A stretch of DNA of 64,000 nucleotides from an uncultured Bacilli bacterium (GTDB lineage: Bacteria > Bacillota_I > Bacilli_A > RF39 > UBA660), in the NCBI GenBank assembly GCA_934119955.1, contig CAKOSZ010000002.1, positions 18,505 through 82,504 of the forward strand, in the 5' to 3' direction. Within the stretch, counting starts at the first letter, position 1; every line of letters begins with the position of its first letter. The notes beneath the pieces were generated by a model that had not been told where the DNA came from, made no database searches, and saw only the letters and a list, made by a program, of their open reading frames with translations. Made by a program: the position numbers and the translations under genes. Shown here piece after piece: positions 3,579 through 62,265 of this stretch.

Positions 3579-3600
3579 TTACCTAGTAGTTTTTTTGTAT
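3565..3600 (+). terminator. Rho-independent terminator overlapping the trmK stop.
   Basis: aaaactact / agtagtttt stem followed by a T-run. Confidence 0.55.
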
Positions 3601-3624
3601 AATTTATATATATTAGGAGGTTAT

Positions 3625-5187
3625 ATGATAATTAGAAAACCTTATGCCTTTTTAATTAAATATTTTAAAATTATTCATATAATAGTATTTATATTATTAA
3701 CTTTTTCTTTATTTAAGTTAAGAAATATTTACTTGTTTTTTAGAAATTATTTAATAAATGGGGCTTATTTATATACAGATAATATGGCAAGTAGTTATGT
3801 TGGTATTTTGTTTATAATAATAATAATCTTTTTAATTGGTATATTTTTAAGTATTTTTCTTTTAATGAAACAAAAGAAAAAGCCAATCATTTATTATGTT
3901 TTAGCCTTAGTTTATTCAGGTATTTGTTTTATATCTTCATTTGTTTTTATGAGTGCTTTTACATCTCTTGAATATAATACTTTTTCTAATCAATCCTTAG
4001 TATTATTAAGAGATTTGGCAATGATTCTTTATTATAGTGATTATTTATTAATTATTGTTGCCTTTGTTCGTGGTTTTGGTTTTAATATTAAAAAATTTAA
4101 CTTTGAACGTGATTTAAAAGACTTAAATATAACTGATAGTGATAGAGAAGAAATAGAAATAAATTCTTCAATTGACTATGAAAAAATAACAAATTCTTTA
4201 AGAAGAAGCAAAAGAAATTTTTCTTATTATATAAAGGAAAATTCTTATATATTAACAGTTTTCTTAGTAATTACTTTATTAATTATAACGTCAATTCTAG
4301 CAGTTAATAAATTAGTTTATAATAAAGTATACAGAGAAAATCAAGAAATTGTTATTGATAAAGCCAATTTAATTATTAATAATTCGTATTTAACAGATTT
4401 AGATTATAAAGGTAATCTTATTAAAAATAATAAAAAATATGTGATAGTTGATTTTAATATTTATAACCATTACGAAAAGGGAATAAAATTAGATTATTCT
4501 AATATGAAATTAAAGATTGATAATACTTATTATTATGCTAAAAATACTAATGTATTTAGTGATCTTGGTACAGTTTATAAGGGACAAAATATAAAAGCAA
4601 ATACTAATAATAATTATATTTTTGTCTTTGAACTTGCTAAAAATATAAATGTAGAAAATTGTTATTTTGAGTTTTATATTGGATCAAATACTAGTAATGG
4701 TGAGGTTAAGCAAATTGTTAAGAATATTAAAATTAATCCAACTACCTTTTCTTCAAAAGATTTAGGTAAATTTGAATTTAATTCTTTGGTTGAAATAAAC
4801 AATAATTTTATTAAATCTTCTAAATTCAATATAAGTAATGTTACAGTTTTAGATATAGATAATTATAAATATACTAAATGTGGAATAAATGAAAGTGAAT
4901 GCACAGATTATGAGGCAAGTATTTTACCAAGTGTAGGTAAATTATTACTTAAAATTGAGTATTCATATACTGGTAATAATGATTTATTTAAATATGTAAG
5001 TATAAAATATAAAAAGAATAATAAAACATATAAACTTACAAATATCGATAATGTTACTCCTAGTAACTATCCAAGAGAAGATGTTGTTTATCTTGATGTA
5101 CCAAATAGTTTTAAAGAAAGTGACTCTTTAATAATATCTTTTGATGTAAGAGGTACAACTTTTGAATACAATGTTAATAAAATATAG
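3625..5187 (+). CDS. Polytopic membrane protein with about 5 TM helices and a large extracytoplasmic Asn/Lys-rich C-terminal domain; function unknown. The likely start is the ATG at 3625, after AGGAGG.
   Basis: Hydrophobic segments in the first ~230 aa, then a ~300 aa polar domain. RBS aggagg at 3614-3619. Its 3-prime end is included in the tandem duplication described below. Confidence 0.5.
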   Translation: MIIRKPYAFLIKYFKIIHIIVFILLTFSLFKLRNIYLFFRNYLINGAYLYTDNMASSYVGILFIIIIIFLIGIFLSIFLLMKQKKKPIIYYVLALVYSGICFISSFVFMSAFTSLEYNTFSNQSLVLLRDLAMILYYSDYLLIIVAFVRGFGFNIKKFNFERDLKDLNITDSDREEIEINSSIDYEKITNSLRRSKRNFSYYIKENSYILTVFLVITLLIITSILAVNKLVYNKVYRENQEIVIDKANLIINNSYLTDLDYKGNLIKNNKKYVIVDFNIYNHYEKGIKLDYSNMKLKIDNTYYYAKNTNVFSDLGTVYKGQNIKANTNNNYIFVFELAKNINVENCYFEFYIGSNTSNGEVKQIVKNIKINPTTFSSKDLGKFEFNSLVEINNNFIKSSKFNISNVTVLDIDNYKYTKCGINESECTDYEASILPSVGKLLLKIEYSYTGNNDLFKYVSIKYKKNNKTYKLTNIDNVTPSNYPREDVVYLDVPNSFKESDSLIISFDVRGTTFEYNVNKI

Positions 5188-5890
5188 GTGAGTTATGAAA
5201 AATAAAAAAGGATTTGTATTACTAGAAACTTTGGTAGTAACTATATTTACTTTAATAATATTTACTCTTTTATACACATCAACTGTTCCACTTCTTGGTA
5301 AGTATAAAGATTTATCTTATTATAATGATATAGATATTACTTATGATTTATATTATTTAAAAAGATTAATAAAAAATGATAGTAAATATAATGATATTAA
5401 TAATAGTAGTTATCAAAGTATTAAATGTACTGATTTAGAGGATGCTAATACATGTAATAGTTACTTTGATGCTTTAAATATTAAGAAAAATGATGAACTA
5501 GTTTACTTAGATTTAAAAGAACTTAGTGCAAATAAAAAATATTTATCAAGTGATATACTTGATTATGTAAATAGAATTGATAAAAAATATAATAATTCTA
5601 AAATACTTATACTTAAAAGAAATGACTATATATCTTTTGTTAAATGGTTTGAACCAACTGAACCAACTATTGTTTTTGAAAACATAGGTGAAACTAATTC
5701 ATGTGGTTATAAAGATAGTGCAACTGTTAAAATTACTTGTAATTCTCCTGATGGATTTAAATCATTAAAAATAAACAATGAAGAAATTACTGATTTAGAA
5801 AATTTAAAAAGTAAAACTATCGAAAAAACAATTTCATCTTCAACTAGTTTTCAAGTAACTTGTACATCTAAATATGATTTAACTAATAGT
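5109..5890 (+). repeat. Tandem duplication unit 1, covering the 3-prime end of the upstream membrane-protein gene, the RBS and the 5-prime ~700 nt of the pilin-like gene.
   Basis: Near-identical DNA to 6267..7048 at an offset of 1158 bp, with mosaic identity. Confidence 0.8.
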
Positions 5891-6145
5891 GATAGTGGTG
5901 AATCACATGATTACACAGTTTGTGAGAAAGAAACAACTTGTACAAAGTATAATTGTACTTGTACATGTAAATATATAGTGTCAGCGGGATTACCATGCAG
6001 CGAAACAAAAAAAAGTACAACTGGTTCTTCTTGTAATAGTGCGTGTAGTAGTAAATGTACTAGTTCTCTTGGTTCTTCTTATTGTGGATATAGATATAAT
6101 ACAGGAACTTGTTCTTCAAGTACATCAAAATGGGTTAAAAAATAA
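5195..6145 (+). CDS. Prepilin-type (class III signal peptide) protein with a Cys/Ser/Thr-rich C-terminal tail, paralog 1.
   Basis: N-terminus MKNKKG|FVLLETLVV fits a type IV prepilin cleavage/methylation motif (G at -1, F at +1, E at +5, hydrophobic helix). The C-terminal ~90 aa carries many Cys in CTCTC-like clusters and ends WVKK. Confidence 0.55.
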   Translation: MKNKKGFVLLETLVVTIFTLIIFTLLYTSTVPLLGKYKDLSYYNDIDITYDLYYLKRLIKNDSKYNDINNSSYQSIKCTDLEDANTCNSYFDALNIKKNDELVYLDLKELSANKKYLSSDILDYVNRIDKKYNNSKILILKRNDYISFVKWFEPTEPTIVFENIGETNSCGYKDSATVKITCNSPDGFKSLKINNEEITDLENLKSKTIEKTISSSTSFQVTCTSKYDLTNSDSGESHDYTVCEKETTCTKYNCTCTCKYIVSAGLPCSETKKSTTGSSCNSACSSKCTSSLGSSYCGYRYNTGTCSSSTSKWVKK

Positions 6146-6266
6146 TGAGTAAGAGTCTTGTTTGGTAGGCTTTTCTGTTATAATTAATTAAATTAGAAGA
6201 TTATTATGTATTTAAAAAATAGAAATAACAGGTTTTAAATTATTATTTATTATAAGTACTTAATAG

Positions 6267-7048
6267 GTTTAAAGAAAGTGATGCTTTAATAATATCTTTT
6301 GATGTAAGAGGTGCAACTTTTGAATACAATGTTAATAAAATATAGGTGAGTTATGAAAAATAAAAAAGGATTTGTATTACTAGAAACTTTGGTAGTAACT
6401 ATATTTACTTTAATAATATTTACTCTTTTATACACATCAACTGTTCCACTTCTTGGTAAGTATAAAGATTTATCTTATTATAATGATATAGATATTACTT
6501 ATGATTTATATTATTTAAAAAGATTAATAAAAAATGATAGTAAATATAATGATATTAATAATAGTAGTTATCAAAGTATTAAATGTACTGATTTAGAGGA
6601 TGCTAATACATGTAATAGTTACTTTGATGCTTTAAATATTAAGAAAAATGATGAACTAGTTTACTTAGATTTAAAAGAACTTAATGCAAATAAAAAATAT
6701 TTATCAAGTGATATACTTGATTATGTAAATAGAATTGATAAAAAATATGATAATTCTAAAATACTTATACTTAAAAGAAATGACTATATATCTTTTGTTA
6801 AATGGTTTGAACCAACTGAACCAGTAATCAAGTTCGATAGTCCAGAAACTTCTAATACATGTGGCTATGAAAATGAAGTAACAATTAAAATTACTTGTAA
6901 TTCCCCTGATGGAATTAAATCATTTAAAATAAATAATGAAGAAATTACTGATTTAGAAAATTTAAAAAGTAAAACTATTGAAAAAACAATTTCATCTTCA
7001 ACTAGTTTTCAAGTAACTTGTACATCTAAATATGATTTAACTGAAAAT
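6267..7048 (+). repeat. Tandem duplication unit 2. It includes an orphan copy of the last ~80 nt of the 3595..5187 gene (FKESDALIISFDVRGATFEYNVNKI*).
   Basis: Direct sequence comparison with 5109..5890. Confidence 0.8.
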
Positions 7049-7417
7049 AATAATAGTGATGAATTTGCAGTTTGTGAATATAAAAGTACAGGTACATGTA
7101 TAGAATATAATTCGTGTCCAGATTCATCGTGTGGTTGTAAATCTTATAAATGCAGTGGATCATCTTGTGGTTATACTTATGGAAGTTGGGAAACGGGAAT
7201 TTGTAAAGATAGTAATCAAAGTAATACATCTTCAACAGAATGGAGTTGCAAGGTAACATATGAATATGATGTTTGCAATGCAACAAAAGCATATATATGT
7301 AAAAAAAGAAGTAGAACGGCAAAATGTTGTTCAAGTGCAGGATGCAAAACATATAAATCATGTCCTAATTCAACTTGTACTTGCAAAACTTATGAGCAAG
7401 CGTGGATTAAAAAATAG
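6353..7417 (+). CDS. Prepilin-type protein with a Cys-rich C-terminal tail, paralog 2.
   Basis: The first ~150 aa are nearly identical to 5195..6145. A divergent block follows, then a re-converged block (KINNEEITDLENLKSKTIEKTISSSTSFQVTCTSKYDLT), then a different Cys-rich tail ending WIKK. Confidence 0.55.
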   Translation: MKNKKGFVLLETLVVTIFTLIIFTLLYTSTVPLLGKYKDLSYYNDIDITYDLYYLKRLIKNDSKYNDINNSSYQSIKCTDLEDANTCNSYFDALNIKKNDELVYLDLKELNANKKYLSSDILDYVNRIDKKYDNSKILILKRNDYISFVKWFEPTEPVIKFDSPETSNTCGYENEVTIKITCNSPDGIKSFKINNEEITDLENLKSKTIEKTISSSTSFQVTCTSKYDLTENNNSDEFAVCEYKSTGTCIEYNSCPDSSCGCKSYKCSGSSCGYTYGSWETGICKDSNQSNTSSTEWSCKVTYEYDVCNATKAYICKKRSRTAKCCSSAGCKTYKSCPNSTCTCKTYEQAWIKK

Positions 7418-7420
7418 AAT

Positions 7421-7450
7421 AAAAGCCTTGTTTAATAGGCTTTTTTTTGT
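7421..7450 (+). terminator. Rho-independent terminator after pilin-like paralog 2. A weaker related hairpin follows paralog 1 at about 6150-6178.
   Basis: aagcct-tgtttaat-aggctt followed by tttttttt. Confidence 0.6.
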
Positions 7451-7478: not shown

Positions 7479-10397
7479 ATGTATTTAAAAGAAATAGAAA
7501 TATCTGGTTTTAAATCATTTGCTGATAAAATAGATATTAATTTAGATAATGAAATAACCTGTATTGTAGGACCTAATGGATCTGGGAAAAGTAATATTGT
7601 AGATGCTATTCGTTTTGTTTTAGGTGAACAATCAGTTAAATCACTTCGAGGGGAATCTTTAATGAGTGATGTAATATTTTCAGGATCTAAAAATCGTCAG
7701 GGAATGCATGCAGCAAGTGTTAATTTAACTTTTGATAATACAGATAATTACTTGAAAATACCTTATAAAACAGTATCTGTTAAAAGAAGATTATATAAAA
7801 CAGGTGATAATGAATATTTTTTAAATGGAGAAAAATGTCGTTTAAAAGATATAGTAGATTTATTTCTCGATAGTGGCATGGGAAGAGATTCTTTCAATAT
7901 AATTAATCAAGGTGATATATCTAAACTATTATCAAATTCATCTTATGATAGACGTCTTGTAATAGAAGAAGCAGCCGGTATTTTAAAATATAAAAAAAGA
8001 AGAGAAGAAGCATTTAGAAAACTTGATAAAACTAATTTAAATCTTGATAGAGTAAATGATATTATTACAGAAGTAGAAGCAAGAGTAACTCCTCTTAAAG
8101 AACAAAGTGAAAAAGCAAGTCTTTATCTTGGCTTAAAAGAAAAACTTAAAAATGTAGAAGTAGGAGTATTAGTAACTTCAATTACTAATAGAAATCAAGA
8201 ATATTTAACCAGTAAAGAAAAAATAAATGAACTAAACACGGATATTATTTCATTAAGTAAAAAAGTAAATGATCCTGAAATAGATGAACTTAAAATAAAG
8301 TCTCTTAATTTAGAAAAAGATTTACAAAAAATTAATCAAGATTTATTAAACATAACTACATTAAAAGAAGAAATAAATGGAAAAAGATTACTTTTAAAAG
8401 AAAGAATAAAACTTAATGCTAATGATATAAAACAAGAAGAAAAATTAAGCTTTTTAACAGAAAATAAGTTTAAATTAGAAAAAGAAATTAATTTAACTGA
8501 AATTGATTTAAAAACTAAACAAGAAGAAAAAAGTGTTTTAGAAACTAATTTAAATAATAGTTTAAATAATTTAACTGCTTTAAAAGAAAAGGTAAGTTTT
8601 TTAAATAAAGAAATTAATAATAAAAGAAATGATTATGAAGTTTTGTTAAATAAAATAGATATTTTAAAAAGTAATATAACAGATAATATGTATTTAAATA
8701 GTAATGTTAAAAAAATACTTGATAATAAAAACTTAACTGGTATAAATGATGCTTTGCTAAATTTAATTAAAACAAGTGATATGTATAAAACTTGTTTTGA
8801 GGTTTTAACTCTTAGTAATAAGAACTTTATAATAATTGATACTAGTAATGATTCTAAAAATATAATTGATTATTTAAAACAAAATAATTTAGGAAGAGTT
8901 ACCTTTTTACCACGTGATGTTATAAAAAGCAAATATGTAGATTTAGATACAGCAAGAATTTTAACTGATAAAAAAGGTTATTTAGGTATTTTTAGTGATT
9001 TTTTAGAGTATGATTTAAAATATAAAAATATTGTTTTAAATCAATTTGGAAATATTTTGGTTGTTGATACCTTAGAAAATGCTAATAATATAAGTAAATT
9101 AATTAATAATAAATATAAAATAGTAACACTTGATGGAGAAGTTATTCATGTAGGAGGAAGTATAACAGGTGGTTCTTTAAATAATAGAACTATTACTAAA
9201 ACTAAGCAGGAATTAACTGATTTAGAAATAAAAAAGACAACTGATAAAAATATAATAGATAGATTATTAGAAGAAAATAATAATAATTTAGATGATATTT
9301 CTAAACTAGAACAATCTATTTATAAGGATAGAACAGATTTAATTATTAAAATAGAAAGTATTAAAAATTTAGAAAGTAAAGTTGATAATTTAAAGAAAGA
9401 ATTAGATAGTACTTGTTTAGAATTAAAATCTTATAATAATGATAGTGATTTAGAACTTAATGAGTTAAATACTAATTATTATAATAAAACTTTGGAATAT
9501 GAATTACTTTTAAAAGAAAAAGATAAAATTAGTTTAGAAAAAGACAAAATTGGAGAAATTATACTGGAAAAAGAAGGTATTTATAAAGAAAATAATCTTA
9601 ATTTAAAAGTTAAAGAAAAGGAATTAAAAGATCTTGAAATCTTAGTTAGTAAATTAGAAAATATGCTTGATAATGACTTAAATACTTTAAATCAAGAGTA
9701 TAGTTTAACTTATGAAAGAGCAAGAGATGAATATGAATTAGAATTTAATCTTGATGATGCTAAAACTATGGTTTTAGAGTATAAAAATAAATTAAAAAGT
9801 ATTGGTAATGTTAACTTAGATAGTATTGCAGAATATAAAGAAGTTAAAGAAAGATATGATTTTTTATCTAATGAAAGAAATGATTTAGTTAAGGCTAAGG
9901 ATATGTTATATTCTTTAATTAGTGAAATGGATGATGTTATGCAAAGTGATTTTTTAAGTACTTTTAAAGAGTTAGAAGTAGAGTTTAAAAAAGTATTTAG
10001 AGAATTATTTAAAGGAGGAGATGCTTCTTTAAAATTAACTGATCCAAGTAATTTAATGGAAACAGGAGTTGATATAATTGCAAGTCCACCGGGGAAAAAC
10101 TTAAAAACAATTACTCTTTTATCAGGTGGAGAAAAAACTTTAACAGCAATTAGTTTATTATTTGCAATTTTAAATATTCGTAAAGTTCCTTTTTGTATTT
10201 TTGATGAAGTTGAAGCGGCTCTTGATGAAGCAAATGTTGATAATTTTGGTTCATACTTACATTCTTATAAAGATAAAACTCAATTTTTATTAATTACTCA
10301 TAAAAAAAGAACAATGGAGTATGCTAAAACTTTATATGGTATTACAATGCAAGAATCAGGAGTATCTAAACTTGTAAGTGTTAAATTGGATAAATAA
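7479..10397 (+). CDS. smc: Chromosome segregation ATPase SMC. At 972 aa it is short, in the Mollicute/Erysipelotrichia size range.
   Basis: Walker A (GPNGSGKSN), long coiled coils, hinge (LTGINDAL...VVDTLENA), ABC signature LSGGEKTLTAISLLFAI, and D-loop FCIFDEVEAALD. Confidence 0.85.
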   Translation: MYLKEIEISGFKSFADKIDINLDNEITCIVGPNGSGKSNIVDAIRFVLGEQSVKSLRGESLMSDVIFSGSKNRQGMHAASVNLTFDNTDNYLKIPYKTVSVKRRLYKTGDNEYFLNGEKCRLKDIVDLFLDSGMGRDSFNIINQGDISKLLSNSSYDRRLVIEEAAGILKYKKRREEAFRKLDKTNLNLDRVNDIITEVEARVTPLKEQSEKASLYLGLKEKLKNVEVGVLVTSITNRNQEYLTSKEKINELNTDIISLSKKVNDPEIDELKIKSLNLEKDLQKINQDLLNITTLKEEINGKRLLLKERIKLNANDIKQEEKLSFLTENKFKLEKEINLTEIDLKTKQEEKSVLETNLNNSLNNLTALKEKVSFLNKEINNKRNDYEVLLNKIDILKSNITDNMYLNSNVKKILDNKNLTGINDALLNLIKTSDMYKTCFEVLTLSNKNFIIIDTSNDSKNIIDYLKQNNLGRVTFLPRDVIKSKYVDLDTARILTDKKGYLGIFSDFLEYDLKYKNIVLNQFGNILVVDTLENANNISKLINNKYKIVTLDGEVIHVGGSITGGSLNNRTITKTKQELTDLEIKKTTDKNIIDRLLEENNNNLDDISKLEQSIYKDRTDLIIKIESIKNLESKVDNLKKELDSTCLELKSYNNDSDLELNELNTNYYNKTLEYELLLKEKDKISLEKDKIGEIILEKEGIYKENNLNLKVKEKELKDLEILVSKLENMLDNDLNTLNQEYSLTYERARDEYELEFNLDDAKTMVLEYKNKLKSIGNVNLDSIAEYKEVKERYDFLSNERNDLVKAKDMLYSLISEMDDVMQSDFLSTFKELEVEFKKVFRELFKGGDASLKLTDPSNLMETGVDIIASPPGKNLKTITLLSGGEKTLTAISLLFAILNIRKVPFCIFDEVEAALDEANVDNFGSYLHSYKDKTQFLLITHKKRTMEYAKTLYGITMQESGVSKLVSVKLDK

Positions 10398-10469
10398 TAT
10401 TATGTTAAATAGAATTTATTTATAATTTTAAGAAAATAGACTTGAATAAAAGTTTTGAAAATGAAATAA

Positions 10470-10931
10470 CAAATTCTAAAAATAATTGAAGTTGCAAGAG
10501 CAATTAATTTAAAAGATAAAAGAAAAAGATATGAGTATATTTATGATACTATTTGTAATAAGTTAGATGCTAAAATTAAAACTAATTATTGTGAATTTGA
10601 AAATGGTATATGCCTTAAAGATAGATTACTTAATAATAATCATCTAAATGGTTGTTGCGAGTGTAGTGGTCGTAGAAAATGTAAATATTTAAATAATACT
10701 TGTACAATTAATTGTCTGGCTTGTAAGTTATTTACTTGTAAAACTTTAAGAAATTTAAATATTAAACAAAGTATAAATGATTTTATTCTGGCTAAGTATT
10801 TTTTTACAAGAAAGCAAAAAGATATTTTAGAACTTACTTTTTTTACAGAAAAAGAAGTAGTTATTGAAAAATTAATGAAAACAATTAAAAATAATAAAAA
10901 ATTAATAAGAGAATATGTTTACAAGGTCTAA
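10470..10931 (+). pseudogene. Stop-free ORF of 153 codons with no ATG/GTG/TTG start, encoding a Cys-rich sequence (..GCCECSGRRKCKYLNNTCTINCLACKLFTCK..). It may be a start-lost or 5-prime-truncated gene, or a gene with a non-canonical start.
   Basis: In ~25% GC DNA a 460-nt stop-free frame is very unlikely by chance. The first in-frame ATG lies only 18 codons from the end. This ORF is absent from the six-frame track. Confidence 0.3.
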
Positions 10932-10966
10932 AAAATAAGATATAATATGACCTGTTGGAGGAAATT

Positions 10967-14550: not shown

Positions 14551-14565
14551 ATTTGGAGGGTGAAA

Positions 14566-16632
14566 ATGAGAAAAATTACATATGTTAAACAAACAGATTT
14601 ACGAGATTGTGGGGTATCCTGCTTACTTGCTATTACCAAATATTATGGTGGATATGCAACAAGAGAATATTTACGTGAAATTACTAAGACAACAAGAGAG
14701 GGGGTTAATATATATTCCTTAAAAGAAGGAAGTAAAGTCTTAGGTTTTGAAGCGGTAGCAGTAAAGGGGAATATTTTAAATATGAAATTAAAAGTTCCAT
14801 TTATAGCACATGTTGTAAAAAATAATCTTGGTCATTTTATTGTTATTATGAGTATTAAAGAAAAAAGTATTACTATTATGGATCCTAGTAGTGGTATTAA
14901 AAATATAACTTATGATGAATGGAATAATATTACAACTAATGTTTACTTGGAATTAAAACCAGTTACTAAAATTTTAAAACAAGAAAAAACTAATTCTTTA
15001 AAAAATTTATTAGTACCAATTATTAAAAGATATAAAATATTAATTATAATTTTATTTATCCTATCACTTATCTATACCTTAACAAATGTTTTAATATCAT
15101 ATCAGTTAAAATTCTTTATTGAATTACTTGATAATAGAAATATTAATATATTAAAAACAATATTTATATTTTTAATACTTGTAAATATACTAAAAGAATT
15201 ATCTAATTTGTTTAAAAATAATTTACTTAATTATATAAACCATACTCTTGATAAAACCTTGTTTAAAGACATATATAATCATATCATTAAACTTCCATAT
15301 TTATATTTTAAAAATCGTACAAAAGGAGATATAACAACTAGAATACAAGATGTATTTACTATAAGAGATTTTATAAGTAATTTAATTGTTTTAATAACAT
15401 CATTAGTTTTAATGATTACTACATTTATCTTTATGTTAAAAATAAATGTAAAATTAACTATAATTTGTTTAATTTTAACAATTGTATACATAAGTGTTAT
15501 TTATCTTTATAATAATTATTTAAGTAAAAAAATTAAAGAATTAAAAGATGAAGAAATAATTGTAAATAATCATATTATAGAATCAGTTTCATCTATTAAT
15601 ACCATTAAAAGTATGCAAATAGAAAATAAATTAACTGATAGTTTACTAAGTAAATATAAATTATTACAAGATGTAAGTTTTGATTTATATCAAAAAAATA
15701 ATCAAAGTAATTTCTTTAAAAATTTAATTTATGGTTTTTGTTTATTAATAATAATTTATTTAGGTATTAAAGAAGTTTTAAATAATAATTTATCACTTTC
15801 TAGTTTACTTGTTTATCATAGTTTATTATCATTTTATTTTGAACCAATTCAAAATTTAGCATCTATTTCTATGACTTTTAAAGAAGCAAGTGTATCTTTT
15901 ATTAGAATTAATGAGTTATTCAGTGTTAAAGAAGAATTAATAGAACCTGATAATAAAACCATAAATCATCATTTAAAAGGAAATATAAAAGTTAATAATT
16001 TAATATATTCTTATAATGGAGTAGAAAACATAATTAAATGTAATAATTTAGATATTAAAGAAGGAAATAAAGTTTTAGTCTATGGCAAAAGTGGTTGTGG
16101 TAAATCTACTTTAATGAAATTATTGGTTAAATATATTAAAGATTATTCAGGAAGTATTTTAATAGATGATAGAGATTTAATGACTTATAATATTTTTGAT
16201 ATTAGAAGAAAAATAACTTTTGTATCTCAACAAGAAGTACTATATACTGATACTATCTATAATAATATAGTTTTAGATAATAATATTTCTTATCCTGAAT
16301 ATTTAGAAATTATTAAATTAACAGGTGTTGATAATATTATTAAAAGAAGTATTTTAAAAGATGATATGTTAATTGAAAATAATGGTTCTAATTTATCAGG
16401 TGGAGAGGTTCAAAGAATAATTCTTGCTAGATCTTTATGTAAAAAAAGTGATATTTATATATTTGATGAATCTTTAAGTGCTATTGATATTCAAAGTGAA
16501 AGAAAAATTATGGAGAATTTATTTAGTTATTTAAATAATAAAACAGTTATAGTAATAAGTCATAGATTTAATAATCGAGATTTATACCAACAATTTGTTT
16601 GTATGCAAAAAGGAGTAGTATATGATTATTAG
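14566..16632 (+). CDS. Bacteriocin-processing and export ABC transporter with an N-terminal C39 peptidase domain (ComA/LagD/SunT type). The track's GTG start at 14560 abuts the RBS, so the ATG at 14566 is preferred.
   Basis: C39 Cys (DLRDCGVSCLLAI) and His (GHFIVIM). A six-helix TM domain. Walker A GKSGCGKST, signature LSGGEVQRIILARSL, Walker B IYIFDESLSAID. Confidence 0.85.
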   Translation: MRKITYVKQTDLRDCGVSCLLAITKYYGGYATREYLREITKTTREGVNIYSLKEGSKVLGFEAVAVKGNILNMKLKVPFIAHVVKNNLGHFIVIMSIKEKSITIMDPSSGIKNITYDEWNNITTNVYLELKPVTKILKQEKTNSLKNLLVPIIKRYKILIIILFILSLIYTLTNVLISYQLKFFIELLDNRNINILKTIFIFLILVNILKELSNLFKNNLLNYINHTLDKTLFKDIYNHIIKLPYLYFKNRTKGDITTRIQDVFTIRDFISNLIVLITSLVLMITTFIFMLKINVKLTIICLILTIVYISVIYLYNNYLSKKIKELKDEEIIVNNHIIESVSSINTIKSMQIENKLTDSLLSKYKLLQDVSFDLYQKNNQSNFFKNLIYGFCLLIIIYLGIKEVLNNNLSLSSLLVYHSLLSFYFEPIQNLASISMTFKEASVSFIRINELFSVKEELIEPDNKTINHHLKGNIKVNNLIYSYNGVENIIKCNNLDIKEGNKVLVYGKSGCGKSTLMKLLVKYIKDYSGSILIDDRDLMTYNIFDIRRKITFVSQQEVLYTDTIYNNIVLDNNISYPEYLEIIKLTGVDNIIKRSILKDDMLIENNGSNLSGGEVQRIILARSLCKKSDIYIFDESLSAIDIQSERKIMENLFSYLNNKTVIVISHRFNNRDLYQQFVCMQKGVVYDY

Positions 16633-17905: not shown

Positions 17906-19309
17906 ATGAAAATAAAAAATTTAGGACAAGTATTTACCCCAATAAACATAGTTAAGGATGTACTAGATGCTGCTGGTTATTCTGGGGAAGTTATTCTTAA
18001 TAAACATGTTATTGATAATAGTTGTGGAGATGGAGCCTTTTTAGTTGAAATAATAAATAGATATATAGATGCTTACTATGAAAAATATAATATACTTACT
18101 AATATTTCAGATGATTTAAAAAAATATATTCACGGAATTGAAATAGATCAAGAAATATATGATATGTGTATTAAAAACTTAAATAATTTATTAGATAGTA
18201 GAAATATAAAAAAAGTTAAATTAGATATTTTAAATAAAGATGCCTTAGGTGTTATAAAATATAATCACAAAATGGACTTTGTTTTAGGTAATCCTCCTTA
18301 TGTAAGAGTTCATAATTTAAGTAGTCAGTATGAAAATGTAAAAAAATATTCATTTTGTAATACAGGAATGACTGATTTATATATTGTGTTTTATGAAATA
18401 GGTCTTAAAATGCTAAACGAAAAAGGGGTTTTATGTTATATTACACCAAATTCCTTTTATAATAGTTTAGCAGGAAGAAAATTAAGAGAATATTTAGAAG
18501 ACAAAAAAAACTTAGAATTAATAATGGATTTAGGTCACTATCAACCATTTAGTGTTACAACTTATACTACTATTTGTAAAATAGTTAATAATCAAAAATT
18601 TCTTGGTTGTAAATATTATAAATATAATACTAAAACAGGAACCAAAGAATTTATTGATTTAATAGAATATAAAAATTTATTTGTAAACAATAATATAATT
18701 TTAGATAATGATTTAAAATATATTAAAATTTTAAACTATGAATTAAAAAAGGATTTAAAAGTAGTTGTAAAAAATGGTTTTGCTACTTTAAATGATAAAG
18801 TATTTATTCAAGATGAGTTTCCTTTTAAGGGAAATCAAATAGATGTTATAAAGGGTTCTACTAATGAAATTAAAAAATGTATTTATCCTTATGATAAAGA
18901 GGGAAAATTAATTCCATTTGAAAGACTAGATAAAAATGTGCAAGAATACCTAGAAAATCATAAAAAAGATTTGATAAAAGAAAATTCTAAGAAAGATTCA
19001 GTTTGGTATGCCTTTGGTAGATCACAAGGTATAAATGATGTGAAATTAAATAAAATATCAATTAATACAACTATTAAAGATCTTAAATCAATTAAATTAA
19101 ATGAAGTACCTGCTAATAAAGGTGTTTATAGTTCCCTATATTTGTTAACTGATGTTTCATTTGAAAAAATTAAATCTCTCATTTATAGAGATGATTTTAT
19201 TGAATATTTAAAGATATTAAATAAATGTAAAAGTGGAGGATATTTTACTTTATCTTCAAAAGATTTAGCAAAATATTTAAATTATTATTTGGAGGAAGAA
19301 AATGAATAA
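17906..19309 (+). CDS. N6-adenine DNA methyltransferase, gamma class and TaqI-like, of a type II restriction-modification system.
   Basis: GQVFTP near the N-terminus (as in M.TaqI x-x-ETP), motif I DNSCGDGAFL, and motif IV NPPY (VLGNPPYVRV). Confidence 0.75.
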   Translation: MKIKNLGQVFTPINIVKDVLDAAGYSGEVILNKHVIDNSCGDGAFLVEIINRYIDAYYEKYNILTNISDDLKKYIHGIEIDQEIYDMCIKNLNNLLDSRNIKKVKLDILNKDALGVIKYNHKMDFVLGNPPYVRVHNLSSQYENVKKYSFCNTGMTDLYIVFYEIGLKMLNEKGVLCYITPNSFYNSLAGRKLREYLEDKKNLELIMDLGHYQPFSVTTYTTICKIVNNQKFLGCKYYKYNTKTGTKEFIDLIEYKNLFVNNNIILDNDLKYIKILNYELKKDLKVVVKNGFATLNDKVFIQDEFPFKGNQIDVIKGSTNEIKKCIYPYDKEGKLIPFERLDKNVQEYLENHKKDLIKENSKKDSVWYAFGRSQGINDVKLNKISINTTIKDLKSIKLNEVPANKGVYSSLYLLTDVSFEKIKSLIYRDDFIEYLKILNKCKSGGYFTLSSKDLAKYLNYYLEEENE

Positions 19310-20006
19310 TGAAGATTTTTTAAAAGTTATAAAAAAATCATTTAATAAGTATTTAGAAACAGGTTCAAGGAGTAATTCTAAATTAAAAATATTACATGGA
19401 GCAATTACAAGTGATTTAAACAAAAGACTAGAAAATTGTTATCAATTACATTCCTTAGGTTATAATGATGATAAAGAATTTAATATGAAGGGACGTTACA
19501 TGGATAAAAAGGTTGATATTGCAATAAGTAACGATAAAGAAGTAATAGCAGGAATTGCTTTAAAGTTTATTATGCGAAATTATTCTCAAAATTCTAACAA
19601 TTATTTTGAGAATATGTTGGGTGAAACAGCAAATATCAGAACTATTGGTAAACCATATTTTCAAATAGTTATAATTCCCTCAAAAATTCCATATTTTAAA
19701 AACGATGGAGTACTTGATCATGTAGAAGTATTATCAGAGAATAACTTGAAAAAATATATTAAATTATCCCATGATAATGTTTTAGAATTTATGCATACAC
19801 CTACTAAAACCTTGATTTATTTAATTGATATGCCTGAAATACCATTAGAAAAAATAAAAAACTATGATGATTATAAAAAATATTATCAAGAAAATGAGAT
19901 AGAAATTTTAGAAAATAATACTAAGTATGATTTTGGTAATTCAGTTATATATAATGATTATAATAAATTTATTGAAAAAATTGTTCATTATATAAAATAT
20001 ATGTAG
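19302..20006 (+). CDS. Putative cognate type II restriction endonuclease. Its start overlaps the methyltransferase stop.
   Basis: Called by position only: it is translationally coupled to an otherwise orphan-looking methyltransferase. It contains a possible PD-(D/E)xK-like segment (VDIAISNDKEVIAGIALK), but no robust motif was identified. Confidence 0.35.
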   Translation: MNNEDFLKVIKKSFNKYLETGSRSNSKLKILHGAITSDLNKRLENCYQLHSLGYNDDKEFNMKGRYMDKKVDIAISNDKEVIAGIALKFIMRNYSQNSNNYFENMLGETANIRTIGKPYFQIVIIPSKIPYFKNDGVLDHVEVLSENNLKKYIKLSHDNVLEFMHTPTKTLIYLIDMPEIPLEKIKNYDDYKKYYQENEIEILENNTKYDFGNSVIYNDYNKFIEKIVHYIKYM

Positions 20007-23914: not shown

Positions 23915-25219
23915 GATATATTACTTGTATATCAATTTTAGATAGCTATGTTAGGTTTAGCTATCTTTTTTCTTATAATTAAATAATTCTTTTTTTAAAA
24001 TAATATTTTTTTGTTCTATTTCAAATATATTAAAATAATCAATAAATTTTTTAGGGAAAGAAGGTATCATTAACTCATAAGGATTATAGCCAGAAAGTGA
24101 ATCACGTTTAACGGAATTAATATGGTTAATCATAAGATTAATGTCGTCTTGATTATAATTGTTAAATGAAGTTCCTTTTGGTATAAATCTTCTAATATAT
24201 TCGTGATTATTTTCAATTTTGCCTTTTTGCTCAGAATGACCAGGATCACAATAAAATAGTTTAGTTTTATAAACATGATAACCATTAAATTCTATATCAT
24301 CGGGTTTAGAAAATTCAATACCATTATCTGTAAGAATAATTGGAAAAATTTCATGAAATTTTTCATAACCTAAAATTTTTTTTAAATTCTTGAAAAAATT
24401 ATTAACAGTATCCGCTTCTTTATTATCGATTTTAAAAGCAAGCATAAAGTTAGCTTGTCTCCATAAAAGAGTAAGTAAAAGAGATTCGCCTTTAATACCT
24501 TCAACAGTGTCCATTTCAATAATATTGATATTAAAATCATTATCATTATAATTTTTAACATAATCTCTAAAATCTTCATATGTTCTATTAATTTTAATTT
24601 TAGTATCTTTTTTAGGTTTATTGATATTGCTTCTTTTTCTTTTTTTATATCTTACTTTTCTAGGTAGATCTAGATTAATAATATCTAAATAACCATTTTC
24701 AACATAATTATATAAAGTTCTTTTACCAACAGGAAATTCATTTTTGTGATTTCTGATAATCATAGAAAAAGAATGTCCTTTTTTTATTTCATCAGATACA
24801 ATATCATTTAAATGTTTAAATTTAGTAGATGTAATATCAATACCTTGCCTAGATTCACTTCTTAGTTTTTCATATTTACCCTGAGCATCCTCAGCATAAT
24901 AATAGTATCTTGTTTTTCTACAACCTTTTCTTAAAGGACAAGCATTACAAACATAAGGTGGTTTTGAGGTTTTATCACATATTTTTTCTTTACCATACCA
25001 AGAAGTGCAATGTTCAATATTTCTATTTTTTAATATCTCATAAGAAATAGTTCTTGGAGATTTATTAATATCATTTGCAATTTTAGAAAATGTCCAATTA
25101 TTTTCAATACCTTTTTCTATTTTAATTCTTTTATTTAAATCAAGATGTTTTTGATATACATTACTAGTATTTTTCTTTTTCAAAATATCACTCCTTTTAC
25201 ATAATACAAGTAATATATC
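23915..25219 (-). mobile_element. IS30-family insertion sequence of about 1.3 kb.
   Basis: 16-bp perfect terminal inverted repeats (GATATATTACTTGTAT at 23915-23930; ATACAAGTAATATATC at 25204-25219) bracket a single transposase ORF. No clean 2-3 bp target duplication was seen. Confidence 0.7.
23957..25183 (-). CDS. IS30-family DDE transposase.
   Basis: N-terminal HTH region, and a C-terminal DDE region with the IS30 signature ...CDPGHSEQKGKIENNHEYIRRFIPKGTSF... Confidence 0.85.
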   Translation of the reverse strand: MKKKNTSNVYQKHLDLNKRIKIEKGIENNWTFSKIANDINKSPRTISYEILKNRNIEHCTSWYGKEKICDKTSKPPYVCNACPLRKGCRKTRYYYYAEDAQGKYEKLRSESRQGIDITSTKFKHLNDIVSDEIKKGHSFSMIIRNHKNEFPVGKRTLYNYVENGYLDIINLDLPRKVRYKKRKRSNINKPKKDTKIKINRTYEDFRDYVKNYNDNDFNINIIEMDTVEGIKGESLLLTLLWRQANFMLAFKIDNKEADTVNNFFKNLKKILGYEKFHEIFPIILTDNGIEFSKPDDIEFNGYHVYKTKLFYCDPGHSEQKGKIENNHEYIRRFIPKGTSFNNYNQDDINLMINHINSVKRDSLSGYNPYELMIPSFPKKFIDYFNIFEIEQKNIILKKELFNYKKKDS

Positions 25220-35348: not shown

Positions 35349-37109
35349 ATGAATGATATTCTTTTAGAGGATATAGATGATGAAGAAGTTAAAGATAAAA
35401 AGAATATCAAGAACGATATGAAGAATAAAAAGAATAAAAAGAAAAAAGTTAAAAAATTAAATATATATTTATTTATAATATCAATAATATTAATACTAAT
35501 GATATTTTTAACAACTTATTTAATTATTAAATATGATATTTTACCATTTAAATATTTAGTAATATTTATTATAGTAGTAATTGTTATACCTTTTGTTTTA
35601 ATATTTTTAACTTTAAAAAAGAAAAAGAAAAAAGGAAATAAATTAAAAGTATTTTTATCAATTATAGAAATTATTTATATATTAATTCTTAGTTTTGGTT
35701 TTTATTATTTAAATAAAACATTTAATTTTCTTGATGATTTTACTAGTAATAACAAGTATCAAATTAAAAACTTTTATGTAGTTGCTTTAAATAAAAGTGA
35801 TTATAAAGAAATTAAAGATTTGGATACAGAAAAAATAGGATTTGTTAATAATTTAAATAGTAGTATTGATAGTGCTAATAAAAAACTTTCGGAAGTAATT
35901 AAAGTAGATTTAGTTGAATATGATGATTATACTACTTTAATTAACAGTTTAGATAAAAAAGAAATAGAAGGATTTGTAATAGGAGATTCTTACTTTGATA
36001 GTCTAGTTGAAGAAGATGAAGAATTAAAAGAAAAATTAAAAGTTATTTATAAATTTTCTTTAAAAGAAAAATTAGAAAGTTTTAAAAAGGAAGTTAATTT
36101 ACAAAAAGATACTTTTAATATTTATATATCTGGAATTGATTCTTATGGTGATGTTAATAGTTTAACTAGAAGTGATGTTAATATTATAGTTAGTGTTAAT
36201 CCTAAAACTCATCAAATATTAATGATTAATATTCCAAGAGATTATTATGTTACTTTACATGGAACAGGTAAAAAAGATAAATTAACTCATGCCGGTATTT
36301 ATGGACTTGATATGAGTGTTAAAACCTTAGAAGATTTACTTGATATTGAAATAAATTATTATTTCAAAGTAAACTATGGAGCTCTTGTAAAACTTGTTGA
36401 TGCCTTAGGTGGAGTGGATGTTTATTCTAAGTATAATTTTACAACAGTTGGAACTGATAAAAGTTATTATTTTAAAAAAGGACTTAACAGAGTAAACGGA
36501 GAGAAAGCTTTATATTTTGTTCGTACAAGAGAAGCATTTAATGATGGTGATAGAGTAAGAGGAGAAAACCAACAAGCCATGATTCAAGCAATTATTAAGA
36601 AAGCTTGTTCAAAAGATATTTTATTTAAATATTCTAATATTTTAGACTCTTTAAAAGGGACCTTTACAACAAATTTTTCAACTGATGAAATAACTGATGT
36701 TATTAATATGCAACTTGATAAAATGCCAAGTTGGAATATAACTTCTATTAGTTTAAATGGATTTGATGCTAGTGAATATACATATAGTTACCCAGGTCAA
36801 AAGTTATATGTAATGAAGCCAAATGAAGAAACTATTAATAATGCCAAAGAAACTTTAAATAAAGTTAAAAATGGTGATATTTTAGATAGTTCCTACAATT
36901 ATACTAGTTCGACCGTTAATGAAGTTAATATAATTACACCTAAAAAAGAAGAACCAAAGAAAGAAACAAAAACTGAAACTGATACTAAATCAGGAACTAC
37001 TGAAAAAACTGATATTAGTGAAAAAACAGATGTTAGTGAAAAAAATGAAAATACTGTTCAAAATGATAAAAAGATAGTAGAAGAAGAAACAAAAAATAAT
37101 AATGAATAA
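35349..37109 (+). CDS. LytR-CpsA-Psr (LCP) family phosphotransferase that attaches glycopolymers to peptidoglycan.
   Basis: N-terminal TM helices; LCP core (NIYISGIDSYGD...SDVNIIVSVNPKTHQILMINIPRDYYV...NYGALVKLVDALGGVDV); Glu/Thr/Lys-rich C-terminal tail. Confidence 0.85.
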   Translation: MNDILLEDIDDEEVKDKKNIKNDMKNKKNKKKKVKKLNIYLFIISIILILMIFLTTYLIIKYDILPFKYLVIFIIVVIVIPFVLIFLTLKKKKKKGNKLKVFLSIIEIIYILILSFGFYYLNKTFNFLDDFTSNNKYQIKNFYVVALNKSDYKEIKDLDTEKIGFVNNLNSSIDSANKKLSEVIKVDLVEYDDYTTLINSLDKKEIEGFVIGDSYFDSLVEEDEELKEKLKVIYKFSLKEKLESFKKEVNLQKDTFNIYISGIDSYGDVNSLTRSDVNIIVSVNPKTHQILMINIPRDYYVTLHGTGKKDKLTHAGIYGLDMSVKTLEDLLDIEINYYFKVNYGALVKLVDALGGVDVYSKYNFTTVGTDKSYYFKKGLNRVNGEKALYFVRTREAFNDGDRVRGENQQAMIQAIIKKACSKDILFKYSNILDSLKGTFTTNFSTDEITDVINMQLDKMPSWNITSISLNGFDASEYTYSYPGQKLYVMKPNEETINNAKETLNKVKNGDILDSSYNYTSSTVNEVNIITPKKEEPKKETKTETDTKSGTTEKTDISEKTDVSEKNENTVQNDKKIVEEETKNNNE

Positions 37110-61455: not shown

Positions 61456-61494
61456 AAATCTTCTTTAAACAATATAAGTTTGAAGGAGATTTTT

Positions 61495-62265
61495 ATGGCT
61501 AAAAACAAAGTTGAAATTACAGGAGTTAATACAAATGAAATAATTGTTTTAAGTAGCAAAGATACAGAAGAATTGTTTAAAAGATATAGAAATGGTGATA
61601 ACCATGCTAAGGAATTACTTGTAAATGGTAATTTAAAACTAGTATTATCAATTCTAAAAAAATATACATCTAGAATAAGTGATTTAGATGATTTATTTCA
61701 AATAGGAGTGATTGGTTTAATTAAAGCAATTGATAATTTTGATATATCCTTAGGTCTTAAACTTTCAACCTATGCAATTCCTATGATAAGTGGAGAAATA
61801 AGAAGATATTTAAGAGATAAAAGCATAATAAGAGTTAGTAGAAGTATGAAAGATTTAGCTTATAAAGCAATTATGAAAAGAGATGAATTAACTAATACCT
61901 TAGGATATGTTCCAAGTTATGAATTAATAGCCAAAGAACTTGGAGTATCAGAACTTGATGTAATAACTAGCATAGATGCTATGTCAGATCCAATTAGTAT
62001 CTTTGAACCAATTTATAATGATGGGGGAGATACAATTTATTTATATGAACAATTAGAAGATAAAAACAGTAATAATGTAGAAATGCAACTTGCTTTAAAA
62101 AAAGCTATAGCTGATTTATCTTTAAGAGAACAAAATATTCTAGATAAAAGATATGTAATTGGTAAAACTCAAATGGAAATAGCAGAAGAGTTAGGTATTA
62201 GTCAAGCTCAAGTATCAAGAATTGAAACAAATGCAATTAAAACATTGAAGAAAACTTTAAAATAA
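61495..62265 (+). CDS. sigG: Sporulation sigma factor SigG-like (forespore late sigma). Start moved to MAKNKVEITGV after GAAGGAG.
   Basis: KVEITGVNT..., region 2 LVNGNLKLVLSILKKY...DLFQIGVIGLIKAIDNFD, STYAIPMISGEIRRYLRD, IRVSRS, DPISIFEPIYNDGGD and GKTQMEIAEELGISQAQVSRIE. These closely match B. subtilis SigG/SigF. Confidence 0.8.
   Translation: MAKNKVEITGVNTNEIIVLSSKDTEELFKRYRNGDNHAKELLVNGNLKLVLSILKKYTSRISDLDDLFQIGVIGLIKAIDNFDISLGLKLSTYAIPMISGEIRRYLRDKSIIRVSRSMKDLAYKAIMKRDELTNTLGYVPSYELIAKELGVSELDVITSIDAMSDPISIFEPIYNDGGDTIYLYEQLEDKNSNNVEMQLALKKAIADLSLREQNILDKRYVIGKTQMEIAEELGISQAQVSRIETNAIKTLKKTLK

Follow-up and report, generated by a model that had tools for sequence, protein, structure and literature searches.

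Why would a human-gut bacterium keep, side by side, two genes whose products begin with almost the same protein and end in quite different cysteine-rich sequences? The question is raised by a 64,000-nucleotide stretch of DNA (hereafter, the window) from an uncultured Bacilli bacterium (RF39; UBA660), taken from contig CAKOSZ010000002.1 (assembly GCA_934119955.1, positions 18,505 to 82,504 of the forward strand). The open reading frame (ORF) list and Pfam matches gave the gene order dnaG-rpoD-trmK-membrane gene-copy 1-copy 2-smc-tig at this locus, in which copy 1 (5195..6145, 316 amino acids (aa)) and copy 2 (6353..7417, 354 aa) are both intact and lie on the plus strand. The reading we favour, at a probability of roughly 0.6, is that they encode modular type-IV-pilin-like surface proteins in tandem, with homogenised carrier halves and with two conserved Cys-rich knobs displayed for binding.

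The tandem duplication and its concerted evolution

The two genes lie in a direct repeat with an offset of exactly 1158 bp (5098-6255 and 6256 to about 7520), as found by repeat searching and alignment. Compared base by base, the copies showed five mismatches at 5098-5125 and three over the 540 nucleotides (nt) of 5126-5665 (at 5155, 5526 and 5591), then mismatches at 29 of the 64 positions of 5666-5729 and at 5 of the 155 positions of 5730-5884, and they were unalignable from 5885 on. The segment 5126..5665 (plus strand) is the homogenised, gene-conversion tract of copy 1, and its partner is 6284-6823. At the protein level, 2 of the first 157 residues differed, residues 158-178 were divergent, 4 of 53 residues differed at 179-231 and distinct tails followed, in agreement with the near-identical first ~150 residues and mosaic identity described in the original prediction.

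That prediction had put the repeat at about 780 bp, including the end of the upstream gene. Its offset was exact and the repeat does take in 90 nt from the 3' end of the membrane gene (which stops at 5187), but the unit is longer and reaches smc. Unit 1 (5098..6255; plus strand, like all window features of this section and the next) extends beyond the pilin-like gene: besides copy 1 it holds the membrane-gene 3' 90 nt and, at its far end, the decayed remains of a terminator and of the smc 5' end. The terminator copy (6151..6174) aligns to 7421-7444, and the terminator scan scored no terminator there. The smc remnant (6206..6246), comprising the start codon and the first ~13 codons, corresponds to 7479-7519 with a 2-nt deletion and forms the right end of the unit. 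The junction lies just past it, at about 6247-6257, and is followed by a membrane-gene 3' remnant (6256..6352; 6 mismatches over 97 nt) that kept the AGGTGAG ribosome-binding site before copy 2. The right-hand boundary is smc itself (7479..10397), the first ~40 nt of which are within the duplicated segment. These remnants of terminator, smc and membrane gene therefore indicate a tandem duplication of a segment that began within the membrane gene and ended within smc.

An intrinsic terminator with an 8-bp stem and a T run (7421..7444) precedes smc. Because it is the only one of the two terminator copies that still scores, the membrane gene, copy 1 and copy 2 probably form one transcription unit ending there, and read-through from copy 1 into copy 2 past the decayed terminator is plausible. 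The window has a guanine-plus-cytosine (GC) content of about 23% and carries nearly all of its genes on the plus strand. At this GC content the promoter scan was uninformative (38 sites versus 41 expected), and Rfam gave zero matches across the whole window.

Tandem repeats in short-read metagenomes, such as those used here, invite the suspicion of an assembly artefact, namely one gene whose two alleles from co-existing strains were misplaced in tandem. Three low-coverage contigs end inside the repeat (L002) or skip over it (L013 and L015), so that they break in the repeat or join the membrane gene straight to the 354-aa form; such breaks and jumps are the expected behaviour of low-coverage contigs at a repeat. 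Against an artefact, the junction holds unique decayed remnants of the terminator, smc and the membrane gene, which allele mixing cannot yield. Moreover, at least five independent metagenome assemblies, made from different samples by different assemblers (SPAdes, MEGAHIT and scaffold-type), show the 316-aa plus 354-aa layout, with coverage reaching 35x. We therefore rule out an artefact and regard any residual chance of it as very slight. In addition, the window was 100% identical over 16 kb to a contig from a Hadza gut metagenome, the copy-1 protein was identical to a protein (P0005) present on four contigs, and the copy-2 cluster at 90% identity held 38 distinct sequences, every one 354 aa long. 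A sister species (~83% nucleotide identity) has one 372-aa gene at the same site.

The most informative comparison came from a strain that differs from the window by 2.8% in smc (L011). Its own two copies were identical to each other over codons 1-157, whereas they differed from the window copies at 18-20 of 471 nt, and from all four other strains at 18-25 nt. In the same codons there were 0 synonymous differences between paralogues versus a synonymous difference (pS) of 0.12 between strains. The 5' halves of paralogues in one genome were identical while those of orthologues across strains were 4-5% different, and the unselected flanking remnants of the duplication were visibly decayed. The ends of the conversion tract also varied by strain: copy 1 of L010 and L011 has the copy-2 version of nt 471-690, and some copy-2 alleles vary in the corresponding block at residues 158-178. 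The carrier halves evolve in concert by gene conversion, as had been suggested from the single sequence.

The tails behaved differently from what had been proposed, which was hypervariability under diversifying selection. The copy-2 tail was the least variable part of the protein, with 6 of 116 positions varying among 15 strain variants and a ratio of nonsynonymous to synonymous differences (pN/pS) of about 0.12 between the window strain and a diverged strain, and it is under purifying selection. The copy-1 tail was more variable (26 of 78 positions), and its pN/pS of about 0.5 was still below 1. With both ratios below 1, diversifying selection was rejected for either tail.

Modular architecture, relatives and filament genes

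Both proteins begin with MKNKKG followed by FVLLETLVVTIFTLIIFTLLY, and their shared start, MKNKKG/FVLLETLVV (the slash marking the predicted cleavage point), has the layout of a class III prepilin signal, with a short basic leader ending in Gly, F+1, E+5 and a hydrophobic helix of about 21 residues. All sequence hallmarks of this signal, which the original prediction had named, are present, and G-1, F+1 and E+5 (G6, F7 and E11) were at least 90% conserved in two sets of homologues (95 and 75 proteins). Copy 1 is made up of a head module (residues 1-152; 5195-5650) that opens with the leader and class III motif (5195-5275), an EPTEP linker with an immunoglobulin (Ig)-like domain (residues 153-238; 5651-5908) and a class A Cys-rich tail (residues 239-316; 5909-6142). 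Copy 2 has the corresponding head (residues 1-152; 6353-6808) and Ig-like domain (residues 153-238; 6809-7066), followed by a class B Cys-rich tail (residues 239-354; 7067-7414).

The AF2 model of copy 2 (predicted local distance difference test (pLDDT) score 78) predicted a helix at about residues 4-42, a compact alpha/beta head (as far as about residue 150) and, over 158-234, an Ig-like sandwich. In the tail, a beta-hairpin (240-253) was modelled as pairing with the last strand (344-353), the two flanking an 80-residue low-confidence Cys-rich stretch. The head modelled alone reached a pLDDT of 88, and the Ig-like middle domain gave weak Foldseek matches to PKD- and Ig-like domains. In motif and helix the head is pilin-like, though not demonstrably of the canonical pilin fold.

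Homologues formed 30 protein clusters with the full-length query and 431 clusters with a profile of the first ~150 aa. In the GTDB species-representative genomes, 180 genomic matches were found, all in uncultured gut Bacillota-type metagenome-assembled genomes. In many relatives the head occurs alone, as proteins of 146-170 aa, and in others it is joined to the Ig-like domain and a Cys-rich tail, two DUF6273 domains, BspA-type leucine-rich repeats (LRR_5) or SH3. The two copies have the composition of modular pilins, that is, a head module plus extra modules (the Ig-like domain and the Cys-rich tail).

Known modular pilins include PilB (pilin plus vWA) and PilC (pilin plus lectin) of Streptococcus sanguinis (Raynaud et al. 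2021, PMC8179133; PMC9934059), and by analogy with them bulky C-terminal modules are expected at the filament tip, where they would bind ligands (PMC8179133, PMC9934059). Like PilB and PilC, the pair described here has a small N-terminal class III pilin carrier joined through a short linker to unrelated C-terminal effectors; one carrier is found with many modules, and a tip position and adhesive role would be expected. Unlike PilB and PilC, the head here has neither a detectable sequence or fold match to solved pilins nor an N_methyl hidden Markov model (HMM) match, its terminal module is an undescribed Cys-rich knob outside the catalogued domains, and the genes lie outside any pil operon as a tandem pair evolving in concert. 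Large minor pilins also occur at the tips of type IVb pili, where CofB of enterotoxigenic Escherichia coli and TcpB of Vibrio cholerae act as initiators or adapters (PMC8179133). These proteins resemble the pair in that beta-rich domains unrecognised by databases come after the pilin module. The cofB and tcpB genes sit within their own pilus operons, unlike the pair. Neither CofB nor TcpB is known to have a Cys-rich terminal domain, which is a further difference. ComGD, ComGE and ComGF (NF040982, NF041013 and NF041002) resemble the pair in coming from a monoderm host and in having a short leader, the GF.L.E motif and a head of ~140-150 aa, whereas the scores obtained here were far under the cut-offs, the alignment was limited to residues 1-40 and the gene context was different. 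The literature library that was searched yielded no description of pilins bearing such Cys-rich tails. The tandem pair is a variant of the modular-pilin design in which both the carrier head and the Cys-rich terminal knob are undescribed.

The tails contain 14.1% and 14.7% Cys versus a background of 1.0%, are basic (isoelectric point (pI) 8.6-8.8), carry CxC and CxxC motifs and end in WVKK and WIKK, so that their Cys-rich character and W(V/I)KK ends were confirmed. Among 1206 ORFs of the collected loci, genuine Cys-rich C-termini were nearly all on pilin-like proteins. Aligned by eye, they share a framework of a last Ig strand (..V[ST]C[TS]S), a Cys-ended strand, CxC..Y and a variable Cys-rich core; the tail ends in C..C[WCY]H[TS] or, in the species of the window and the alleles closest to it (P0003 and P0010), in W[IVF]KK. 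At least three classes can be distinguished. Class A is found in copy 1, P0011, P0017, P0024 and giant pilins of L016, L020 and L033; class B in copy 2, the 2521-aa pilin of L026, P0161 and P0160; and class C in P0002, P0010, L021 and the two giant pilins beside the window. The description of the two tails as unrelated thus holds for their distinct sequences, but they are not the product of random divergence: they belong to two pre-existing classes with a common framework.

P0160 has an ordinary signal-anchor N-terminus, and a 21-residue stretch of it is identical to the copy-2 allele P0001 (EWSCKVTYEYDVCNASKAYICK); tails have therefore been swapped from one kind of carrier to another. The Ig plus class B module was found in just four proteins by a HMMER search of 1.84 billion representative proteins and is therefore confined to a small clade; the three strongest HMMER matches to the Ig-plus-tail segment were bacterial surface proteins with the same module. 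No family in Pfam or NCBIfam covers the tails, and for these libraries they are indeed, as originally stated, not a described family. A metallothionein or keratin-associated identity was rejected, since the likeness is one of composition only and Pfam, NCBIfam and HMMER show no such homology. Total Cys counts were mostly even, which fits disulfides, but metal binding is equally possible. As a word-indexed protein query, the C-terminal half of copy 1 (5651-6145) returned zero matches despite identical full-length entries in the database; this null result was treated as an index or low-complexity artefact and not counted as evidence, since Cys/Ser/Thr-rich queries of low complexity seem to escape such a search.

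Genes for a type 4 filament were found in the more distant relatives. Of the 61 distant loci (L034-L094), 60 have a T2SSE ATPase gene (Pfam E ~1e-115) beside the homologue and running in the opposite direction, and in most of them a second pilin, with N_methyl, comes after the homologue. One of these loci, L055, also encodes T2SSF (the platform protein) and A24 (the prepilin peptidase), 8-9 kb downstream. In L088 (5684-9176), the T2SSE ATPase gene (minus strand), pilin A and pilin B come directly after dnaG-rpoD-trmK, which is the site of 3595-7417 in the window; the ATPase gene has therefore been lost from this site, or has moved away, in the window's subclade. In that subclade the pilin-like gene is always immediately upstream of smc. 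This linkage to T2SSE in distant loci supports an origin of the family in type IV filaments.

Directly ahead of the first position of the window, before dnaG, locus L007 (313-9279) encodes giant N_methyl pilins of 1151 and 1631 aa, which scored 31 and 29 bits against a threshold of 21.2 (the former is called as 1148 or 1151 aa, two start-codon calls for one gene). Because these neighbours pass the N_methyl threshold, we infer a prepilin peptidase in the organism. Each giant carries at its C-terminus an Ig-like domain and then a class C Cys-rich tail (...YKCT.FACKTYKTCCHT), and giant pilins carrying the tail classes of the window in related bacteria measure 1100-2500 aa.

The two giants are themselves a diverged tandem pair, with 95% nucleotide identity over the first ~1270 nt and a mosaic pattern thereafter; the 1631-aa protein has a repeated internal block of roughly 260 aa, and a 211-aa signal-anchored protein follows the pair. 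Relatives (L026:1940-9505, L031:2553-8546, L020:2643-6647 and L033:6107-10360) encode pilins that measure 1334-2521 aa, far above the usual size of described pilins, and that open with a canonical class III N-terminus. In L020, L026 and L033, the giant pilin is followed by a small signal-anchored protein of ~145-170 aa.

The membrane gene upstream of the pair (3625..5187) encodes 520 aa, a length also found in public assemblies, the longest ORF starting from TTG at 3595. A transmembrane (TM) scan predicted four TM segments near the N-terminus, then a charged loop and one more TM segment, with a beta-rich ectodomain of ~290 aa, and no Pfam or NCBIfam match was obtained for the protein. The gene is restricted to the closest relatives and adjoins the pilin-like gene in L016-L019, L030 and L032; the two genes are 7 nt apart in the window and overlap by 17 nt in L003. 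A relationship to the C-terminal extensions of the relatives' T2SSE ATPases was rejected, as there was no similarity and the extensions are of low complexity.

Interpretation and alternatives

We propose the following history and function. A stretch beginning near the end of the membrane gene and finishing just within smc would have been duplicated, and one copy would then have gained, or retained, the other tail class, probably through recombination with another pilin gene. Ongoing gene conversion may keep the carriers identical, so that both proteins stay compatible with the same processing and assembly partners, and the class A knob of copy 1 and the class B knob of copy 2 may be maintained as separate conserved modules. 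The class III helix would serve as membrane anchor and polymerisation helix. After cleavage by a prepilin peptidase, the proteins would be displayed at the tip of a type IV filament or, alternatively, on short membrane-anchored stalks reaching through the wall, and the knobs, stabilised by disulfides or metal, could be two alternative binders of a ligand on the surfaces of host, food particles or partner cells. Of this, the duplication, the domain architecture, the concerted evolution, the tail classes with their occurrence on giant pilins and the linkage of the family to filament machinery in relatives are established, whereas cleavage, incorporation into a filament, surface exposure and binding are inferred.

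Several results weigh against this proposal. The Pfam check proposed with the original prediction failed: neither copy matched N_methyl (PF07963 / IPR012902) at E <= 0.1. N-terminal matches to the NCBIfam models of ComGD, ComGE and ComGF reached ~7-20 bits versus cut-offs of 49-80 and covered model positions 1-36 only. With the head as query, Foldseek found no similar solved pilin or other structure, and a profile search of PDB sequences gave nothing significant, the best match being the helix of geopilin at a sub-threshold E of 0.44. The stand-alone head of a giant pilin matched PDB sequences only in the helices of PilE1 and geopilin, below threshold. The tail was modelled at a pLDDT below 50, with no confident fold. 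No T2SSE, T2SSF or A24 gene was found in the window or in the 10 kb on either side of it (84 kb), the ATPase gene is absent from the locus throughout the close subclade, and in the closest relatives the 520-aa membrane gene, of no known family, occupies its place. Finally, collapse of short-read de Bruijn graphs can inflate the identity between repeat copies, though the block with 29 differences is too divergent for such merging.

The main rival, which we consider unlikely though deserving of serious attention, is that the two proteins are former pilins: the machinery would have been lost or uncoupled in the subclade, the helix would be a mere anchor, and the proteins would be static stalks or adhesins working with the co-transcribed 520-aa protein. 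The lack of machinery genes in the 84 kb fits this view, as do the position of the membrane gene between trmK and the pilin-like gene (L003 and L016-L019), where L088 has T2SSE, the 7-nt spacing or overlap of the two genes, and the occurrence of the Ig plus Cys-tail module on P0160 behind an ordinary signal anchor. However, G-1, F+1 and E+5 are essentially invariant in the subclade, which is hard to explain without cleavage or polymerisation; the invariant E+5 in particular speaks against a plain anchor because a charged Glu is unfavourable in one. Moreover, the neighbouring giant proteins exceed the N_methyl threshold, and the membrane partner is missing in L020, L026, L033, L097 and L098, which retain the pilin-like gene. 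Considerably less probable is a role as minor pilins of a Com pseudopilus, in which basic, zinc-ribbon-like Cys-rich tails capture DNA and a reduced genome scavenges nucleotides. The basic pI of the tails, their CxC and CxxC motifs, the ComGD, ComGE and ComGF N-termini as best, if weak, HMM matches and the minimal machinery of the relatives (ATPase, platform, peptidase and two pilins) would suit it. Those scores, however, are far under the cut-offs and align the N-terminal helix alone, the order of a comG-type operon is lacking, other com genes were not seen in the window, and the extensions of the relatives (DUF6273, BspA-type LRR, SH3, MBG and Ig) are typical adhesin modules rather than DNA binders.

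Gene conversion between pilin genes also recalls Neisseria, where pilE and pilS have a 5' constant and a 3' variable part and undergo non-reciprocal recombination between copies. The pair shares with them the conserved 5' and variable 3' parts and the non-reciprocal exchange, and antigenic or phase variation, with 3' cassettes moved by conversion into an expression site to evade immunity or phage, could account for the strain-dependent tract ends (copy 1 of L010 and L011), for the rare alleles P0002 and P0003, which fuse a copy-1-like body to other tails, and for the 21-aa tail stretch common to P0160 and P0001. Unlike pilE/pilS, though, both genes here are full ORFs with their own ribosome-binding sites and there are no silent cassettes; the observed conversion evens out the conserved carrier half and does not diversify the tail; and the tail class is fixed per slot across strains, the copy-2 tail being the least variable. 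We judge such a variation system to be a long shot, marginally behind the Com pseudopilus. A bolder proposal, speculative and doubtful yet closer in weight to the former-pilin rival than to these two, is that a reduced-genome, low-GC clade of gut Firmicutes has rebuilt the type 4 filament, with a novel head fold, a mobile Ig plus Cys knob (at least three classes) swapped among small and giant pilins and signal-anchored proteins, and, in the closest relatives of the window organism, the 520-aa protein in place of the ATPase gene at its ancestral site, giving a non-canonical display. If it were true, the knobs would be metal- or disulfide-stabilised ligands for attaching to partner cells, in an episymbiosis analogous to the type IV pilus-dependent attachment in Saccharibacteria.

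Under our preferred reading of a tandem pair of modular pilin-like proteins, the locus bears on a wider issue. Modular pilins are thought to explain many functions of simple filaments, and few have been studied, most being catalogued via N_methyl. The family described here evades that signature, is abundant in uncultured gut Bacillota and shows that carrier and effector modules recombine in nature. The pair is a clean natural case of concerted evolution limited to the carrier half, with the effector halves kept distinct. As for the Cys-rich knob, it makes a candidate for a new adhesion domain, found in uncultured organisms that possibly depend on cell contact; if the knobs bind host or microbial ligands, they would offer handles to study, and possibly to enrich or culture, the bacteria that carry them.

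Genomic surroundings

Two further regions of the window were identified by eye from the translations. The only large minus-strand gene (23957-25183) encodes an IS30-like transposase, and just upstream lies a pair resembling a DNA methyltransferase and a restriction enzyme (17906-20006); both appear to be inserted into a co-directional housekeeping region. A cell-surface polysaccharide cluster of ~29 kb (25389-54774) encodes rfbA/C/D/B-type dTDP-rhamnose genes, a Wzm/Wzt-type ATP-binding cassette (ABC) exporter, many glycosyltransferases and a flippase, together with an O-antigen-polymerase-like gene, an LCP-family protein (35349-37109) and a UDP-glucose dehydrogenase. The cluster therefore suggests a substantial wall glycopolymer, which a pilin-anchored stalk would have to cross.

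The spacer between smc and tig differs between strains: L011 has a 211-aa gene there (10050-10685), and the window has a 557-nt gap (10398-10954) with no listed ORF of at least 90 aa. According to the Pfam annotation of a public gene call, an ABC exporter with an N-terminal C39 peptidase domain, of the bacteriocin or double-glycine peptide type, is encoded at 14560-16632 and is followed by a 133-aa ORF. Near the end of the window (61480-62265) and in the region 5-10 kb past its end (L095:15730-20231) lie GerA/GerAC spore-germination genes, a gene of the IS605 OrfB/TnpB type and one for a sporulation-type sigma factor. The GC content is very low and the genome seems small, but the organism nonetheless probably forms spores.

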